Below, in pieces: positions 45,150-52,535 of a stretch of DNA of 64,000 nucleotides (within the stretch, counting starts at the first letter, position 1; each line of letters begins with the position of its first letter). The DNA is from an uncultured bacterium (GTDB taxonomy: Bacteria; Hydrothermota; UBA3072): positions 49,245 to 113,244 of the forward strand of contig CAZSEX010000003.1 in the NCBI GenBank assembly GCA_964606065.1, read 5' to 3'. Position numbers and translations under genes: made by a program. The notes beneath the pieces are model-generated. The model was not told the DNA's origin and did not search any database. It worked only from the letters and a program-made list of their open reading frames with translations.

Positions 45150-46199
45150 ATTAAAAAACAATTTATTTTTTATATTCTGGTTTTTCTGTATATTGCTGGG
45201 TGCACCGCAAGAGAGTATAAGTTAAGTGGGGATATTTTTCTTAAGACCGGAGAATATGAGAAGGCAGCCGTTCAGTATAAGGCATGTGCTAAAAAAGAAA
45301 AAGATAATCCGAATTGTTACGTTGCTCTGTCAGTTCCGTATTATAAAGAAGATAATTATTTGCAATCCGCAGAATATCTTAGAACTGCTTTCGAGATCAA
45401 TAGAGATTTGGCTGAAAAAACGGTATTGTTTTACGAAAACCTTTTGGGAGTCGAAAATTACAGCTGGAGTGTCTTTTATGCTGGAGCGGAAGAGGTTATG
45501 AATAATGAACAATTTGAAAAATCTATAGAGTTTATAGAAGAGGCTGAGGAAGTAGAAGATAGTACTTATAAGGCGATGTCTTATGTTCTTCACGGTAGGA
45601 TTCATTTGAAAGAAGGAGAAGAAGATAAAGCTTTAAGTTATTTTGATAAAGCGCTCGATTTTGATGAGGATAACGCGGAAGCATATCTCTATACAGGGGA
45701 AATATTCACAAATAAAAATAAATTTGATAAAGCTATTTTTAATCTCAAGGAAGCGATTTCAATTAAGCCCGACATTTTTTTAGGTTATAAGTTACTCGGG
45801 CAAAATTATCTGAAGAACAAAAAATATGATAAGGCAATCGAATCTCTTGAGAAGGCTTTTTCTATAAACAGTAGCGACCGAGTTGTTCTTCACAATCTTG
45901 CCTGTGCTTATTTGCAGAAAGAAGATTACACTCGCGCGTCCAGTATCGCCGAAAAGATTCTTAACCTACAGGAAGTAGAATCCGATAAGAAAGCAGAAGC
46001 GTATATAATTCTGGGAATGGCAGATATTTATGAAGAAAAGTACGACGAAGCTATAGAAGTTTTGAATAAGGCAATCGAAGCCGATTCTAACAATTGTGAT
46101 TCATATCAACTTATGGCGCTTGCTTATAAAAAAGCGGGAAAAGTAAGTTTTTCTAAAGAATTTTCTATAAAGTGGGAAGAATGCGTGGAGAAACAATAA
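45150..46199 (+). CDS. TPR-repeat lipoprotein (candidate AUU start)
   Basis: Lipoprotein signal (M)IKKQFIFYILVFLYIAGC, then multiple TPR repeats. There is no in-frame ATG, GTG or TTG between the promoter and the signal peptide. SD GGAG lies 5 nt before ATT at 45150. The track ORF starts at a GTG inside alr at 44970. Confidence 0.5.
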   Translation: MKKQFIFYILVFLYIAGCTAREYKLSGDIFLKTGEYEKAAVQYKACAKKEKDNPNCYVALSVPYYKEDNYLQSAEYLRTAFEINRDLAEKTVLFYENLLGVENYSWSVFYAGAEEVMNNEQFEKSIEFIEEAEEVEDSTYKAMSYVLHGRIHLKEGEEDKALSYFDKALDFDEDNAEAYLYTGEIFTNKNKFDKAIFNLKEAISIKPDIFLGYKLLGQNYLKNKKYDKAIESLEKAFSINSSDRVVLHNLACAYLQKEDYTRASSIAEKILNLQEVESDKKAEAYIILGMADIYEEKYDEAIEVLNKAIEADSNNCDSYQLMALAYKKAGKVSFSKEFSIKWEECVEKQ

Positions 46200-46228
46200 A
46201 TTTAGATTCTTTTTTGAATCGACGTATG

Positions 46229-47353
46229 CTACGATTCTTTTTTATCAAACCTTTTATCACTTTTCCCTCCTCGACCTTTCATTTTCCTTGTTTTATTTTT
46301 GAATAGAATATTAAACGTTGTGCCCTTGTTGGGGGTGCTTTCGATTTTTATTTCTCCCGAGTGTTCTTCTATCACTTTCTTAACAACTGTCATCCCCAGA
46401 CCGGTACCTTTTTTGCCGTGAGTGAAAAAAGGTTCGAAAATTCTGCTTATTATCTCCGTGGACATTCCGATACCGTTATCCCGAACGAAAAGTTTTATTC
46501 CTGTTTCGGTCTTTTCCGCTCCCAGTTCGATTTTTCCTTTTTCTTTTATTGCTTCTCTCGCGTTTTTCAAAAGATTTAACAGAACCCTTTTCATTTTGAA
46601 TGGGTCAAGTTCGTAAAAAAGATTTTCACACGGCAGAATTACTATTTCTATTTCTTTCCCATCGGAAGTTTTACCAAACAGTTCTACAACTTCTTTGAGA
46701 TACTGATAAATGTCGATCGCCCGGAAATCCAGCGAACCTCTGTCTCTACCGAATTCAAGGATATCTTCTATCATCTCGAAAGAGAAATCCACAGAATTGC
46801 CGATAGATTTTGCGTATTTCTTTATCCTCTCGTCGTTACTTATATCCTCTAAAATATCAGCGTATCCCTTGATAGCTGAAAGAGGTGATTTTAAATCGTG
46901 AATTATAGTTGCTCCGAGTTTTTCGATGGTCGCGAGTCGTTCTTCCCGAAGGGCTTTTTCCACAACTTTATCATTGATGTTACGCAGCCTGTTTGAAAGT
47001 ATTTGAAAAAGGCTGACGACAATGTTAGGATACTTTGCAAAAAGTTTATAAAAATCTTTTATGTCGCTCTTGTAAAGAACGGTTTTTTCTGCCGCTGTTA
47101 CGGTAGCCGAACGCGAACTTTCAATAAGTGACATTTCGCCAATAATGTCTCCGGGTTTAAGCTCTGCTAATAGCTCTCCCCTTTTTTTTACCAGAGCATA
47201 TCCTTCTTTTACAATAAAAAGTTCTTCACCGGGTTCGTCTTCTTTAACTATTACTTCGTTTTTTTTAAAAGTAATTTCTTCGAAGATTTTTTCGAGTGCG
47301 GCAGTTTCTTTTTCTCCTATTCCTGTAAAAGCCTTTTTCAACAAATTCCTCAT
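46229..47353 (-). CDS. Cyclic-nucleotide-binding domain sensor histidine kinase (cNMP-HisKA-HATPase)
   Basis: N-terminal CAP-family cNMP-binding domain (FIVKEGYALVKK...LKPGDIIGEMSLIESSRSATVTA), H-box IIHDLKSPLSAIKGYADIL, and G1/G2 boxes VRDNGIGM and GTGLGMTVV. Confidence 0.75.
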   Translation of the reverse strand: MRNLLKKAFTGIGEKETAALEKIFEEITFKKNEVIVKEDEPGEELFIVKEGYALVKKRGELLAELKPGDIIGEMSLIESSRSATVTAAEKTVLYKSDIKDFYKLFAKYPNIVVSLFQILSNRLRNINDKVVEKALREERLATIEKLGATIIHDLKSPLSAIKGYADILEDISNDERIKKYAKSIGNSVDFSFEMIEDILEFGRDRGSLDFRAIDIYQYLKEVVELFGKTSDGKEIEIVILPCENLFYELDPFKMKRVLLNLLKNAREAIKEKGKIELGAEKTETGIKLFVRDNGIGMSTEIISRIFEPFFTHGKKGTGLGMTVVKKVIEEHSGEIKIESTPNKGTTFNILFKNKTRKMKGRGGKSDKRFDKKES

Positions 47354-47490
47354 ACTTTAAAAATAATCTCAGGCTGTTAAATGTCAACGATAATGGTTCT
47401 TGCGAGCCGTTATAAGATAGACCGGTTTTTTTACTAATTTGAAATCTGTTTTTTGGTAGAAATTATTTGACGATGTCTTTGTTGTTAAAA

Positions 47491-48180
47491 TTAGTTTCTT
47501 ATTTCTACTATCTCCGCGCACTCCTCTAAAATCAGAGAGGTTTCTTTTATGTATCCGTCCGGATAAGATTTTATATCCGAAAACTCGGGAGAAAGAGTTT
47601 TGACATTTCTAAAATTCTGAAGAACAAATTTTTTGACTGGCCCTATTTCTTCGCAAATCTTTTTAACATCTTCTTTGTCCACGATTCCGGGTACCATCGT
47701 GGTTCTAAACTCATAACTTTTTGTTTCTTTTATAATTTCGATACTTTTTTCTATGTCTTTGAATGCAGCTTTGTCCCCGGTGGCAAGAGGATATTTTAGG
47801 GGCGAAGTTTTTACGTCCATTGCGATATAATCGATAAAAGGTAGAACTTCCTTTAGTTTCTCTGGCTGCGTTCCGTTTGTGTCTAATTTTATGTCGATGT
47901 TTACTTCGTCTTTAATCCTTGTGAAAAACCCCTTTAGTTTTTTCGATAGAAGAGGTTCTCCTCCGGTAAAAGCGACCCCGTCAATAAAACCTTTCCTGTT
48001 TTTTAATTCTTCAATTATTTTACTCTGTGAAATATCCGGGATTTCTTTTAGGAGTTCAGGTAATACAAGATCAAGGTTATGACAATACGGGCATCTTAAA
48101 TTACAACCTCCTATGAAAACTACCGAGGAAATTTTGCCGGGAAACTCTATAACGCTGGTTCCCAAAAAAGATTTAATCAT
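47491..48180 (-). CDS. nrdG: Anaerobic ribonucleoside-triphosphate reductase activating protein (radical SAM)
   Basis: CNLRCPYCHN radical-SAM cluster motif. It lies immediately downstream of nrdD. Confidence 0.85.
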   Translation of the reverse strand: MIKSFLGTSVIEFPGKISSVVFIGGCNLRCPYCHNLDLVLPELLKEIPDISQSKIIEELKNRKGFIDGVAFTGGEPLLSKKLKGFFTRIKDEVNIDIKLDTNGTQPEKLKEVLPFIDYIAMDVKTSPLKYPLATGDKAAFKDIEKSIEIIKETKSYEFRTTMVPGIVDKEDVKKICEEIGPVKKFVLQNFRNVKTLSPEFSDIKSYPDGYIKETSLILEECAEIVEIRN

Positions 48181-48187
48181 GTCAGCT

Positions 48188-48361
48188 TTATTGTTTTTCC
48201 GTTTTCAAATATTTTCTTTCTTTAAACTCTTCCTTTTTCCCTTCATTCCAGTCTTGGACAGGTCTGTAGTATCCGACTACACGGGAATATACTTCGGCTC
48301 TTATTGCGCGGACTTTTTTACTACCGTTTTCATTATCCAGTGTGTTTTTTTCTTTTTCCAT
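48188..48361 (-). CDS. Stand-alone glycyl-radical module of class III RNR (57 aa)
   Basis: Manual minus-strand translation gives MEKEKNTLDNENGSKKVRAIRAEVYSRVVGYYRPVQDWNEGKKEEFKERKYLKTEKQ. RVVGY...WNEGKKEE matches the NrdD C-terminal glycyl-radical motif (RVxGY...RWNxGKxxE). It has its own SD AGGGAGGG 9 nt upstream of the ATG. Confidence 0.5.
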   Translation of the reverse strand: MEKEKNTLDNENGSKKVRAIRAEVYSRVVGYYRPVQDWNEGKKEEFKERKYLKTEKQ

Positions 48362-48377
48362 TTTGTTTTTCCCTCCC

Positions 48378-50501
48378 TTAATTTGCTTTGTTTAAAAAAA
48401 CCTGCAGGGTTTCTTTTTCTTCCTCTTGGGGAAGCTCGTCTTCGATTCTTTTATACGATCCTTCCTTCATGGTTTTTAAAGTTTCTTCACTTAGCTCGAC
48501 AGTTTGTCCGAATTCTTCTAATTCTTCATCGGTATGAGGATAAGGACAGTAGAAGTGTTCTCCAGGTACATACCCGTGAACAGGGCATATTGAAAAAGTG
48601 GGAGTGAAACTGAAATAAGGAAGAGAAAATCTGTTGACTATTTTTCTGGTAAGATCCCGTACTGTTCTCCAATCCGTTATAGCTTCTCCGAGGAAAATGT
48701 GGACGACGGTTCCTCCGGTGAATAAAATCTGAAGAGGATCCTGATGTTCCAGAACGATGAAGGCATCATCGACTTCGTTGACTGGAGGATGCACTGAATT
48801 CGTGTAATAGGGAGCATCGGTTCCTTTTGTGTAAATATCGGGGAACCGCTCTTTGTCCTTTCTTGCCAGACGGTAAGAAGCGCTTTCTGCCGGCGAAGCT
48901 TCCAGGTTATATAAGTTCCCTGTTTCCTCCTGGAATTCCAAGAGCTTATTAGACATAAATTTAAGTATATTCTCAGCCCATTCTTTTCCTTCCCGGGACA
49001 AAACCCCTTTTCCGAACATGTTTACGCAGGCTTCATTGGTTCCTATCAAACCTATTGTCGAAAAATGATTATCCCAGTAAGAACCGGAAGTTTCTTTAAT
49101 AATTCTTAAGTAATGTTTTGTGTAAGGATACAGCCCTTCTTCCGTAAAATCTTCTACAATTTTTCTCTTAAGTTCTAAAGATTCCTTTGCGGTTTCCATA
49201 ACATTGGAGAGCCTATCAAAGAACTCATCATTATTATTAGAAAGATAGGCTATTCTGGGGAGATTTATGGTTACAACGCCTATACTGCCTGTCATTGGAT
49301 TGGAACCAAAAAGACCTCCTCCTCTTTTTCGGAGCTCTCTATTGTCTAATCTCAACCGGCAGCACATACTCCGTGCGTCTTCGGGATCCATATCCGATGA
49401 GACAAAATTACTAAAATAAGGTATTCCGTATTTACCTGTCATTTCCCATAGAGGTATAAGTTCCTCGTTTTCCCAGTCGAAGTCTTTTGTTATATTATAA
49501 GTAGGAATGGGAAAAGTAAAAATTCTCCCTTTAGCGTCTCCCGCCATCATTAATTCGGCGAGGGCTCTGTTAATCATATTCATTTCTTTTTGGAAGTCTC
49601 CGTATGTTTCATTTTTCTCCCTACCCCCGATTATAACTTTTGTTTCTTTGAAGCTCTCTGGAACTTTCAGGTCCAGAGTGATATTCGAGAAAGGTGTTTG
49701 GAACCCTACTCTCGTAGGCACATTGATATTAAATAGGAATTCCTGCAATGCTTGTTTTGTATCTGAATAATCCAGATTGTCAAAGCGAATAAAGGGAGCC
49801 AGAAGTGTGTCGAAATTGGAAAACGCCTGTGCTCCTGCCGCTTCTCCCTGAAGGGTATAAATAAAATTGACGACCTGCCCGAGCGCGCTTCTTAAGTGTT
49901 TCGCGGGAGAGGACTCAACTTTTCCGCTCATACCCCTGAACCCATCCTTTAAAAGATCCATCAAGTCCCAGCCCACACAGTAAGGTCCGAGTATGCCGAG
50001 ATCATGAATGTGAAAATCGCCGCTGCTGTGCGCTTCTCTTATTCGAGGGCTGTAGATTTTGCCGAGCCAGTACCTGGCGGTTACCGAAGAAGACACATAA
50101 AAATTTAGACCCTGAAGAGAAAAGTTCATATTGGAGTTTTCGTGAACTCTCCAATCTTCCTTTTTTAAATATTTTCCCATAATGCCTTCGACATCTTTAA
50201 AAACATCTTCAACTTTGCGGGCTTCGTTTCTCTTTTCTCGGTAAAGGATGTAGGCTCTGGCAACGTCCGGTAGTTTTCTTAACATTAGAGTTTCTTCCAC
50301 ATAATTTTGTATTTCTTCGACTGTGGGAATATTTCCCAGTCTGAAGAAATTCATATAAAGCGAGGTTTCTACCTGATTGGTTATGGCGGTGGCGTTTTCT
50401 TTTACGCCTATTGCTTTCAACGCTTTTGAAATCGCAACGTTTATCTTTTTCTTGTTATAAGGGACAACGTTACCGGACCTTTTTCTAATAAGCCATTCCA
50501 T
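48378..50501 (-). CDS. nrdD: Anaerobic ribonucleoside-triphosphate reductase (class III) catalytic protein with N-terminal ATP-cone, lacking the glycyl-radical tail
   Basis: ATP-cone MEWLIRKRSGNVVPYNKKKINVAISKA, the NrdD core, and a C-terminal Zn-ribbon-like CPVHGYVPGEHFYCPYPH. It ends in an acidic tail with no RVxGY motif. Confidence 0.9.
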   Translation of the reverse strand: MEWLIRKRSGNVVPYNKKKINVAISKALKAIGVKENATAITNQVETSLYMNFFRLGNIPTVEEIQNYVEETLMLRKLPDVARAYILYREKRNEARKVEDVFKDVEGIMGKYLKKEDWRVHENSNMNFSLQGLNFYVSSSVTARYWLGKIYSPRIREAHSSGDFHIHDLGILGPYCVGWDLMDLLKDGFRGMSGKVESSPAKHLRSALGQVVNFIYTLQGEAAGAQAFSNFDTLLAPFIRFDNLDYSDTKQALQEFLFNINVPTRVGFQTPFSNITLDLKVPESFKETKVIIGGREKNETYGDFQKEMNMINRALAELMMAGDAKGRIFTFPIPTYNITKDFDWENEELIPLWEMTGKYGIPYFSNFVSSDMDPEDARSMCCRLRLDNRELRKRGGGLFGSNPMTGSIGVVTINLPRIAYLSNNNDEFFDRLSNVMETAKESLELKRKIVEDFTEEGLYPYTKHYLRIIKETSGSYWDNHFSTIGLIGTNEACVNMFGKGVLSREGKEWAENILKFMSNKLLEFQEETGNLYNLEASPAESASYRLARKDKERFPDIYTKGTDAPYYTNSVHPPVNEVDDAFIVLEHQDPLQILFTGGTVVHIFLGEAITDWRTVRDLTRKIVNRFSLPYFSFTPTFSICPVHGYVPGEHFYCPYPHTDEELEEFGQTVELSEETLKTMKEGSYKRIEDELPQEEEKETLQVFLNKAN

Positions 50502-50746
50502 TAAATACCCTCCTTTAAGTGAAACGCAAACATTATTTTAAACGGAGAAACAAAGCCTTTACTTTTTTCGTATAACGAAAAAACCCGATATTGGCAACCA
50601 TTAATGAACAAAGATTCAAATTTCGCATTTTGTGTATCTGTATTTTATATTAAAAAAACAGCCTTATAAGTCAAGGGGCATTATTAACTTTTTTTTAAAA
50701 AAAACACAAATCTTGACTTTGCTGTTTCTTATGTTAATGTAAAAGA

Positions 50747-51340
50747 ATGAGCACCTTAAGCAAATATATTATCATAAGAAAATCGTTGCATCTCTCGACG
50801 GCTTTAGTTCCTATTGTTTATATTTTTACTCCCGGAGCTACTGTGGTTGTAAGCCTTTTTTTTCTTGCTTTTTTTTCTTTAATTATCGATTTTCTTAGAT
50901 TGAAGATAAAGCCGATAAGAAATTTTTTTGACCGTTATTTAGGAAAATTATTCTGGGAAAAAGAAAGAAATACTTTAACAGCCGCCACTCACTATGCGGT
51001 TGCAGCTTTCCTTACTGTTTATTTTTTTGATAAATGGATAGCTATCGCGGTGTTGCTTTTTCTCGCTTTCGGAGACACGGCTGCGCATGTAATCGGAGTA
51101 CGCTGGGGAAGGAATCGCATCGGTTCAAAACAATCGGAGAAAACAATCGAAGGTAGTTTTGCGTGTATTGTTATTTGCCTTAGCATTTCTTTTCTTTTGC
51201 CTCAACCCGATTTGTTTGTTCTTTTTGTCGGTTCGGTCGTGGCTTCTCTGGTGGAGTTTTTCCCTTTCGGAATCGACGACAATTTTACTCTTCCTATTAT
51301 ATCCGGAGCGGCAATGGAAATTATGGTTAAACTTTTCTAA
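50747..51340 (+). CDS. CTP-dependent lipid kinase / CdsA-like family membrane protein (dolichol/phytol kinase-like)
   Basis: N-terminal RKSLHL motif, six TM helices and a KTIEGSFA motif resembling the CTP_transf_1 family. Confidence 0.5.
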   Translation: MSTLSKYIIIRKSLHLSTALVPIVYIFTPGATVVVSLFFLAFFSLIIDFLRLKIKPIRNFFDRYLGKLFWEKERNTLTAATHYAVAAFLTVYFFDKWIAIAVLLFLAFGDTAAHVIGVRWGRNRIGSKQSEKTIEGSFACIVICLSISFLLPQPDLFVLFVGSVVASLVEFFPFGIDDNFTLPIISGAAMEIMVKLF

Positions 51341-51361
51341 AATTTGAATCTTCCGGTACTG

Positions 51362-51395
51362 AAAAAAAGCCCATATCGAGAAAAAGGATATGGGC
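51362..51395 (-). terminator. Rho-independent terminator (perfect 9-bp stem) for the minus-strand outer-membrane protein gene
   Basis: gcccatatc, gagaaaaag, gatatgggc. The A run on the plus strand becomes a U tract on the minus strand. Confidence 0.55.
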
Positions 51396-51425
51396 TACAA
51401 TGAAGAAAGTTTAAAGAGGATAATA

Positions 51426-52535
51426 TTATCTATAACTCACAGATAAATTAAAGTGATTCTCTTCTCTTAAGGAAGGTTCCTTTTTTATCAGTGTGCTGCT
51501 TGATGCCGAGAGATTCAGAACGATTCTTCCAAAATCTAATCCTAATCCTCCGGTAAGAAAGACCTGATCATAACTATCCTCGCCAAAGGTAGGCGAAGTT
51601 ACAAATGTTATCGGAGCCGGATTGGTGTAAAAACCTGCGCTGATAGACAAACAATCATTGAGTTTGTATTGTCCGCCGAGATGTATTCTGATTATATTTC
51701 TAAAATTGTCTGAATCCCATGCCTCTCCGGAATAGGCTAATTTCCAGTGCATATACTCGCCTGACAGGTTCATATATATTCTGTTTCTTATATTTATCCC
51801 GGTTCCAAAGCCCAATACGAGAGGCAACCCTTCGCCGGATTCAGCCGAAGATACTGTGCCGCTATGATTTTCTTTGTAGGCTTTCCCAAAACCTTTCTTA
51901 ATAAGAGCGCCAAAAGAAAAAATATCGTTTGCCTTATATTGCAAACCCAGGCTGGGTTCGATACCGTATTTATCCAGACTATAATAATAACCGCTATAAA
52001 CGGTATCGGCGGTTTTAAAAGACGAGCTGGAACGCATCCAGAATACAGCTATATTTAATCCCACAGAAAACTTACCGTTTATTTTTTTGGCAATTGTTGG
52101 ATTTAAAGAGTAAAACCTTATCGCATCAGATTCTTCTGCGGGAATAGACCTGAATCCATCAGGGGTAGATGAGTCGGGGACCGTAACTGTTGATGAATCT
52201 TGTTGCGCGACCATATAAGGAACAGATAGAGACATGCTCATAAAAAGATCCTTTTTAAACGGAAATGCGACACCCAGATAATCGGGAAAAGCATAATCCG
52301 TTGAAGCGGTATCCTGCGGAATGCCGACAAAAGACATCTTTCCTTTTGTTAACTTATAACCCGCAAAAACATTAAACTTTTCGGCGCCCGCAAAGGCGGC
52401 AGGATTATACAAACCGCATTCGATGTTATTATATAAGCCCACGGGAGCGCCTCCTATACCAAGAGAATAACCTCCTATGTCATTCGACTGATAGTAGCAA
52501 CCATAAGCAAAAACACACAAAGAAAAAAACCACAT
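51426..52535 (-). CDS. Outer-membrane beta-barrel transport protein, FadL/OmpP1-like
   Basis: Signal peptide, an N-terminal NPA motif (GLYNPAAFAG), and alternating amphipathic beta-strand pattern throughout. Confidence 0.4.
   Translation of the reverse strand: MWFFSLCVFAYGCYYQSNDIGGYSLGIGGAPVGLYNNIECGLYNPAAFAGAEKFNVFAGYKLTKGKMSFVGIPQDTASTDYAFPDYLGVAFPFKKDLFMSMSLSVPYMVAQQDSSTVTVPDSSTPDGFRSIPAEESDAIRFYSLNPTIAKKINGKFSVGLNIAVFWMRSSSSFKTADTVYSGYYYSLDKYGIEPSLGLQYKANDIFSFGALIKKGFGKAYKENHSGTVSSAESGEGLPLVLGFGTGINIRNRIYMNLSGEYMHWKLAYSGEAWDSDNFRNIIRIHLGGQYKLNDCLSISAGFYTNPAPITFVTSPTFGEDSYDQVFLTGGLGLDFGRIVLNLSASSSTLIKKEPSLREENHFNLSVSYR

Follow-up and report, generated by a model that had tools for sequence, protein, structure and literature searches.

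A class III ribonucleotide reductase with its predicted glycyl-radical subunit encoded by a separate small gene in an uncultured Hydrothermota bacterium

Results and Discussion

A small gene between nrdD and nrdG encodes the predicted radical loop

The 64,000-nucleotide stretch analyzed here (positions 49,245 to 113,244 of contig CAZSEX010000003.1, assembly GCA_964606065.1, forward strand; referred to below as the 64-kb window) comes from an uncultured bacterium of the Hydrothermota (UBA3072) and carries a three-gene class III ribonucleotide reductase (RNR) whose catalytic subunit is, with a probability that we put at roughly 85%, naturally split into a large chain (NrdD-L) and a small glycyl-radical chain (NrdD-S), served by the activase NrdG. 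The locus was read within this window, where all three genes lie on the minus strand: nrdD-L, the large catalytic subunit of 707 amino acids (48378 to 50501; open reading frame [ORF] and family profiles), nrdD-S, a stand-alone glycyl-radical subunit of 57 amino acids (48188 to 48361; MEKEKNTLDNENGSKKVRAIRAEVYSRVVGYYRPVQDWNEGKKEEFKERKYLKTEKQ; Pfam NRDD profile), and nrdG, a radical-SAM activase of 229 amino acids (47491 to 48180; TIGR02495 and Pfam). A first-pass annotation of this DNA had proposed a two-polypeptide class III RNR with the radical segment encoded as a gene of its own between nrdD and nrdG, and that proposal was borne out by homologues, selection and co-occurrence.

Direct reading of the junction agreed with the first-pass annotation in all coordinates, the 16-nt spacer, the Shine-Dalgarno (SD) sequence and the ATG. 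NrdD-L ends in LQVFLNKAN, followed by a TAA stop codon that together with the spacer occupies 48362 to 48380 (minus strand). The spacer itself (48362 to 48377) reads GGGAGGGAAAAACAAA in the mRNA sense, and joined to the AA of the stop codon it makes the SD sequence AAGGGAGGG, from which 9 nt lead to the nrdD-S ATG (48359 to 48361). The frame of nrdD-S differs from that of nrdD-L (3 + 16 = 19 nt), and the nrdG ATG (48178 to 48180) follows the nrdD-S stop codon after a gap of 7 nt.

The 57-residue product had been credited with the signature of the NrdD radical domain, and family profiles confirmed it. Residues 22 to 50 of NrdD-S matched positions 533 to 560 of the 562-position Pfam NRDD profile (E = 1.4e-9; 37.6 bits against a cut-off of 26.2), and the last ~30 positions of TIGR02487 (NrdD) were matched with E = 5.2e-9. 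A Pfam scan reporting to E 0.1 returned NRDD alone, with no match to PF01228 (Gly_radical), and NCBIfam likewise returned NrdD models alone. The motif reads YSRVVGY..RP..WN.GK..EF, and 14 of its residues were invariant in 43 small homologues (Y25, S26, R27, V29, G30, Y31, R33, P34, W38, N39, G41, K42, E45 and F46). Gly30, encoded by GGA at 48272 to 48274 (minus strand) within RVVG30YY, is the predicted radical site, an assignment carried over from the family. Alignment to an NrdD C terminus, as the first-pass annotation had suggested, gave the right register at low significance: a profile of the 43 small homologues matched the YMRIVGY region of Thermotoga maritima NrdD (residues 613 to 644 of 651) at E = 0.05, and in this weak match Gly30 is aligned with the glycine of the RIVGY motif. 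The single NrdD-S peptide found no match among Protein Data Bank (PDB) sequences by phmmer, and an AlphaFold2 (AF2) model of NrdD-S alone predicted no autonomous fold (predicted local distance difference test [pLDDT] score of 59.7; predicted template modeling score of 0.17).

NrdD-L has the ATP-cone and full barrel of a class III enzyme and lacks the radical loop

Pfam NRDD (PF13597) matched residues 121 to 659 of NrdD-L over profile positions 1 to 531 of 562 (E = 1.1e-176), and NCBIfam NF006126 scored 992 bits against a cut-off of 548. The two proteins, covering positions 1 to 531 and 533 to 560 of the 562, are therefore complementary pieces of one family profile. An ATP-cone domain, which we take to be the allosteric activity site, lies at residues 5 to 93 (50223 to 50489, minus strand; Pfam PF03477, E = 9.6e-21); NCBIfam models of class II RNRs matched NrdD-L in this region only, far under their cut-offs. 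The codons of C380 and C381 (49359 to 49364, minus strand) belong to the finger-loop motif SMCCRLRLD and were invariant in 77 split-type large subunits. This site is presumed to hold the thiyl-radical cysteine that would take the radical from NrdD-S; we assume its equivalence to the radical cysteine of characterized NrdDs from knowledge of the family, not from structural superposition. Every conserved barrel and finger-loop residue was kept in NrdD-L, with a mean of 72% identical columns across the 77 homologues. Its AF2 model (pLDDT 79.5) shows a class III RNR fold, falling below 50 at finger loop residues 381 to 403, which were modeled without NrdD-S, and the top Foldseek matches of the model were the NrdD structures of Prevotella copri, Streptococcus thermophilus, T. 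maritima and phage T4 (E down to 2.4e-31). NrdD-L and NrdD-S were modeled as separate chains, which says nothing direct on docking. The activase matched TIGR02495 (NrdG2) at E = 7.6e-54 (182 bits; cut-off 131), as well as Pfam Radical_SAM and Fer4_12.

Past the barrel, the large chain departs from its fused relatives. Close fused relatives have the order PTFS[IV]C.xHGY..GE...CPxCG...EVYSRVVGY, in which 84 nt separate the core motif from the loop, whereas the large chain of the window type runs PTFSICPVHGY..GE...CPYPH[TS][DE]EE[LI]..[FY]G...EGSY[KR]..., then an acidic stretch, then a stop. Relative to the fused proteins, ~50 new residues follow the hairpin on NrdD-L and ~20 leader residues precede EVYSR on NrdD-S. 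The hairpin itself, placed by alignment at C639-P-V-H642 ... C652-P-Y-P-H656 (48534 to 48587, minus strand), has the ligand pattern Cys-x2-His...Cys-x3-His in place of the C-x2-H...C-P-x-C of close fused relatives; C639, P640, H642, G643, Y644, C652, P653 and H656 were invariant in the 77 homologues, a pattern compatible with a predicted Cys2His2-type metal site having been kept. A separate observation concerns the large subunit of an Aminicenantes metagenome-assembled genome (MAG; locus L060), which reads PTFSISPVSGY...FDPNPV, with all four hairpin ligands (C, H, C, H) replaced, and which retains the tail (EGSYIKIEEEEE...) and the downstream small ORF; the metal site seems to be dispensable in that lineage.

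The C-terminal tail of NrdD-L (residues 657 to 707; 48381 to 48533, minus strand; tail alignment and AF2) comprises a [TS][DE]EE[LI]..[FY]G helix and an EGSY[KR] motif, both conserved, then the acidic stretch and the stop; in the AF2 model, helices span residues 658 to 664 and 672 to 677, and residues 689 to 707 are disordered. The tail would be a candidate docking module for NrdD-S. An R[IV][VC]GY motif is absent from it, and the Pfam NRDD match ends at profile position 531 of 562. The first-pass description of a 707-residue NrdD with an acidic tail and no glycyl-radical motif thus holds, given this stop and the radical-domain profile scores of at most 2 bits on all 77 large-subunit tails. 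The same scores dispose of a vestigial radical loop in the tail (EGSYKRI resembling EVYSRVV), an idea raised because the NF006126 alignments of NrdD-L and NrdD-S overlap: the radical-domain profile, run directly on the 77 tails, found no similarity despite that overlap.

The split architecture is conserved, widespread and under selection

In an independent assembly of the same organism (Logan SRR8556479), an identical small ORF is flanked by nrdG and by an upstream ORF that is cut (156 amino acids, its end 16 nt before the small ORF), which contradicts a sequencing error at the junction, an explanation that the first-pass annotation had wished to see excluded. A 2.5-Mb contig of another organism has the arrangement nrdD(707)-small(58)-nrdG(229), with stops and starts overlapping. 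A word index yielded 301 homologues of NrdD-S, the best 120 of which were all 42 to 87 amino acids long. HMMER, run exhaustively over 1.84 billion cluster representatives (50% identity; E ≤0.001), found 2,848 clusters matching NrdD-S, and 149 of the best 150 were 49 to 106 amino acids long. On the side of the large chain, the best 120 NrdD-L homologues (65 to 100% identity) without exception ended without the RVxGY motif and had CP[VI]HGY...CPYPH in common; they came from WOR-3, Fermentibacteria, Aegiribacteria, Aminicenantes, Thermodesulfobacteria and Aquificota and included the cultured Thermodesulfatator indicus and T. autotrophicus. The stand-alone small ORF was also present in cultured species.

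Whether relatives of the gene are fused or split was a further point that the first-pass annotation had raised: the 120 nearest NrdD homologues all lack the motif, and two wider searches gave both fused and split loci. A search of GTDB species representatives by peptide motif gave at least 589 loci, and among the best 80, which were classified, 47 had a stand-alone small ORF and 33 had the loop fused to nrdD. Metagenome contigs were searched by the conserved NrdD core, independently of the peptide, giving 80 loci at 57 to 86% identity (52 fused, 23 split and 5 with the contig end at the junction). A small radical-loop ORF was found in every one of the split metagenome loci (23/23), directly after nrdD or after nrdG, a strict co-occurrence. 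Motif variants within the classified loci, assigned by eye, included RVAGY (L098) and RVVGW (L144), and the core varied as PTFSRC, PTYTVC and PVFS. A phage search with the 57-residue query returned three records (E ≤0.001), two under NrdD-annotated genes and the third unannotated, T4 being too distant for this query.

The core of the small ORF had a median dN/dS of ~0.09 in 34 usable pairs, with synonymous sites saturated against the window, and NrdD-S differs from its counterpart in locus L005 by 26 nt and just 6 amino acids; judged by these substitution patterns, the small ORF is under purifying selection. One alternative reading is that a fused nrdD was broken, either by an error in sequencing or assembly or by a frameshift of recent date, and that the small ORF is a leftover pseudogene fragment. 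A frameshift would indeed leave a small ORF directly after nrdD-L and in another frame, as seen here. However, the junction is not a simple break, with ~70 extra residues, altered metal ligands and its own SD-ATG, the same architecture is found again in the independent assembly, in each of the 120 nearest homologues and in genomes of cultured species, and the small ORF is under purifying selection, all of which leaves artefact or decay with next to no chance of being the right explanation.

The other way of restoring a canonical chain would be recoding, in which programmed frameshifting, readthrough or bypass joins both ORFs into one NrdD. In favor of this, the ORFs are adjacent or overlapping in most loci, and a few loci are in the same phase (offsets of 0, 6, 9, 15 and 24 nt). 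Across loci, however, stop-to-start offsets ran from −20 to +24 nt, with some loci at >100 nt, and all three phases were represented, a spread that speaks against conserved frameshifting or readthrough. No slippery or structured element was seen to be conserved (an Rfam scan of 46000 to 52000 returned no RNA element), the window has a TAA stop codon and, 9 nt ahead of the ATG, a strong SD, and some genomes have nrdG in the interval that separates nrdD from the small ORF, or have the small ORF at another site (L107, L073, L011 and L038). We therefore give recoding a very small chance. The first-pass interpretation of a genuine split, and not a mere frameshift, is upheld by the small ORF's own SD-ATG and by the spacing in three phases.

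Routine annotation does not miss these small ORFs, as the first-pass annotation had expected it to: IMG and NCBI call and name them (e.g., WP_013906755.1 of T. indicus), and in databases they carry the label "anaerobic ribonucleoside-triphosphate reductase" or are listed as hypothetical proteins. The large subunits go by the name of the complete reductase, and RNR surveys that require the radical motif may consequently misjudge such genomes.

Junction types and the origin of the split

Further kinds of junction were seen among the classified loci. A coiled-coil type occurs in Hippea, Elusimicrobiaceae, a Spirochaetaceae MAG and locus L157 (loci L042, L070, L080, L071 and L157). Its large chain retains CPxC and then runs on as a heptad-like helix (e.g., CPICKEEKLEEIESEIQRLKRQLE), and its small ORF has a matching N-terminal helix (MTRDEILKRIEELEKAKKEIKGTPCEVYSR) ahead of GTPCEVYSR; the two helices look like a docking pair. 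In a hairpin-break type, found in Desulfuromonadales-like loci and others (L074, L111, L113, L115, L119, L100 and L093; also L064, L048 and L078), with RefSeq examples in Desulfuromonas and Geopsychrobacter, the large chain stops ~7 to 9 residues past the third ligand (CPHGHEEKAA). The small ORF of this type starts M..KC.AKTEVYSRVCGFF and retains a cysteine where fused proteins have their fourth ligand, and it is possible that a metal site is shared between the two chains. The candidate docking solutions observed are of three kinds: an acidic tail, a pair of coiled coils, or a junction placed within the metal hairpin.

Gene order also varies, as nrdD-nrdG-small or nrdG-small in L073 (Halanaerobium saccharolyticum) and L107, with L011, L038, L054, L046 and L048 among the other loci of varying order. 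In several genomes the small ORF stands beside rhodanese-like, metallo-beta-lactamase-like or dehydrogenase-like genes, with no nrdD within 600 nt upstream.

A neighbor-joining (NJ) tree of the barrel only, without support values, grouped the window type with the hairpin-break type in a single large block that has a few fused lineages nested in it, and put other split lineages among fused ones. Split lineages being scattered among fused ones in this tree, several independent splits are likely. One of the nested fused proteins, from a Caldisericia MAG (L036), already shows the CP..H change of ligands together with an insert of 20 residues (CPKEHSEEELKLYGRRSDEMSNELFIRPEVYSRIVGYF); it could be either a pre-split intermediate or a re-fusion.

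In some proteins a CxxC redox domain comes after the radical loop, as in the small ORFs of L071 (184 to 195 amino acids) and L058 (171 amino acids). The stand-alone protein of L071 matched Pfam Glutaredoxin (E = 6.7e-5), and the small ORF of L058 contains FPNCDKCE and had no Pfam match. A similar C-terminal extension was seen in the fused NrdDs of L035, L044, L067, L069, L075, L077 and L081, and the CxxC extension after the loop suggests a built-in reductant. In one further protein (P0283; 348 amino acids), the radical loop occupies residues 12 to 40, and behind it come a peptidoglycan-binding domain (PF01471) and a region without assignment; either gene calling produced a fusion here or the architecture is an odd one.

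Proposed mechanism and weighing of the evidence

In the mechanism that we propose, all three genes would be carried on one mRNA, with nrdD-S translated from the SD-ATG 16 nt after the nrdD-L stop and nrdG from a start 7 nt after the nrdD-S stop. NrdD-L would supply the ATP-cone, the ten-stranded barrel with its finger-loop cysteines and the Cys2His2-type hairpin, and NrdD-S the radical loop. NrdG, with S-adenosylmethionine, would abstract a hydrogen atom from Gly30 of NrdD-S, and the RVVGYY loop, with the radical on its glycine, would be held non-covalently in the NrdD-L barrel beside Cys381. The seated loop would then generate the thiyl radical that starts nucleotide reduction, like the covalent C-terminal domain of a fused NrdD, and the ~70 extra residues at the junction (NrdD-L tail and NrdD-S leader) probably keep both chains together. 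Complex formation, activation of the free or the bound peptide, metal binding and catalysis are all predictions of this scheme. As NrdD-L is without any radical domain, the best-supported reading is that NrdD-S would be an obligate subunit and the only source of the radical loop.

A different role for the small protein would be that of a spare part only, a GrcA-like rescue factor for a full-length NrdD encoded elsewhere, with the 707-residue protein inactive or regulatory. There is precedent in GrcA/YfiD for a free glycyl-radical peptide serving an enzyme in trans (PMC12338860), and the view of the genome is 64 kb. Against this, NrdD-L is intact and highly conserved (on average 72% identical columns in the 77 homologues), NrdD-L, peptide and activase form an operon-like array, split-type nrdD and the small ORF occurred together in 23 of 23 loci, and no second nrdD or second radical-loop sequence was found in the 64-kb window. 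We consider a purely auxiliary role unlikely, at long odds.

Some points do weigh against a naturally split catalytic subunit. The NF006126 alignment of NrdD-L reaches position 674 of 684 and so overlaps the NrdD-S match at 650 to 683. The small ORF does not adjoin nrdD in some genomes (L011, L038 and L054), where the pairing is presumptive. Expression of NrdD-S and its association with the large chain are predicted from sequence, and with only 64 kb of the genome in view it is possible that a second, fused nrdD lies elsewhere.

Within the reading of NrdD-S as a subunit of a split enzyme, it might also serve as an exchangeable radical carrier, charged by NrdG off the enzyme and docking reversibly, a tentative idea that we think has the odds against it. 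The cell could then, speculatively, replace the 6.8-kDa piece alone after oxygen cleavage at the radical glycine. Were this so, the amount of charged peptide available could determine RNR activity, and the recurrence of independent splits that differ in how the chains dock would mark trans-acting radical domains as a selected strategy. The peptide would further be a minimal substrate, provided by nature, on which to study how activases gain access to a buried glycine.

Expression signals and neighboring genes

Upstream of nrdD-L, a consensus scan alone identified a sigma-70-like promoter candidate (TTGACT-16-TAATAT; 50647 to 50674, minus strand), which could drive an nrdD-L/nrdD-S/nrdG operon. 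Promoter and terminator scans gave no well-placed site between the three genes, only generic matches. Between the promoter-like site and the nrdD SD lies an 8-bp inverted repeat (TTTTTTCG-TTATA-CGAAAAAA; 50563 to 50583, minus strand), which had no Rfam match and could be an operator or a hairpin.

Immediately on the 3′ side of nrdG, a cyclic-nucleotide-binding domain is fused to a HisKA/HATPase histidine kinase (46229 to 47353, minus strand), in which a receiver or transmembrane segment was not noted; the same neighbor is present in the independent assembly (L001). A 164-amino-acid ORF on the plus strand (48113 to 48607) runs antisense to the nrdD-L/nrdD-S/nrdG junction. It overlaps three conserved genes, its translation is of low complexity and rich in Phe and Leu, and it is most likely spurious.

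Comparison with known systems

Glycyl-radical enzymes are usually described as single chains that carry the radical on a C-terminal domain. The locus described here resembles single-chain NrdD with NrdG (T. maritima 4COI/4U3E, phage T4 1H78 and P. copri 8P23) in its ATP-cone, barrel and finger-loop cysteine motif, in a putative metal hairpin before the loop, in the RVVGY...WNxGK sequence and in the adjoining radical-SAM activase. Its tested features are those of a class III RNR, apart from the missing radical domain in cis and the altered hairpin ligands (Cys-x2-His...Cys-x3-His where close fused relatives end in CPxC): single-chain NrdD holds the loop in the same polypeptide, whereas here it is a separate product of 57 residues with ~70 extra residues around the break. 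Full-text searches found no paper describing a split NrdD radical domain, most subscription journals lying outside their coverage.

The closest functional parallel is GrcA/YfiD, a small free glycyl-radical protein that receives its radical from the activase of its partner, a large barrel enzyme on which it works in trans (PMC12338860; PMC13450708). This parallel, drawn in the first-pass annotation, stands in part. NrdD-S, too, is a small free-standing protein that is essentially a glycyl-radical loop. However, GrcA/YfiD has a domain of the pyruvate formate-lyase (PFL) type and rescues an oxygen-damaged enzyme with a radical domain of its own, whereas NrdD-S belongs to the NRDD family and not to the PFL type, and its partner has no radical domain. 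GrcA, the one known free-standing radical protein, has been treated as a peculiarity of formate lyases (PMC13450708), and a review of June 2026 names formate lyases as the only glycyl-radical enzymes with small spare-part proteins (PMC13450708). If our reading is correct, an RNR found in several phyla, with its only radical loop on a protein of 40 to 90 residues, would be a case of a radical domain working obligately in trans, and evolution would have reached such an arrangement more than once. NrdD-S would also offer a natural peptide substrate for NrdG-type activases and a system in which radical installation could be separated from catalysis, and cultured sources are at hand in Thermodesulfatator, Thermosulfidibacter, Halanaerobium and Desulfuromonas.

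Two other cases of divided RNR genes are more distant. In the split class II enzyme NrdJa/NrdJb of Pseudomonas aeruginosa and Thermus phage phiYS40, the catalytic chain is encoded by two consecutive genes, and the first chain bears an additional element at its C terminus that has been proposed to keep the two pieces together (PMC9669993; PMC3653736). The likeness is architectural only, an RNR chain divided near a C-terminal functional module: NrdJa/NrdJb is an adenosylcobalamin-dependent class II enzyme whose detached part is a cysteine-rich/Zn-finger reductant tail, whereas here the enzyme is of class III and the detached part is the predicted radical site. Phage nrdD genes also occur in pieces, through a group I intron in T4 and as the fragmented nrdD of Aeromonas phage phiAS4 (PMC3653736). 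Those interruptions are introns, homing endonucleases or unexplained fragmentation in single genomes, whereas the split described here is conserved and selected across several phyla and has a dedicated small gene.

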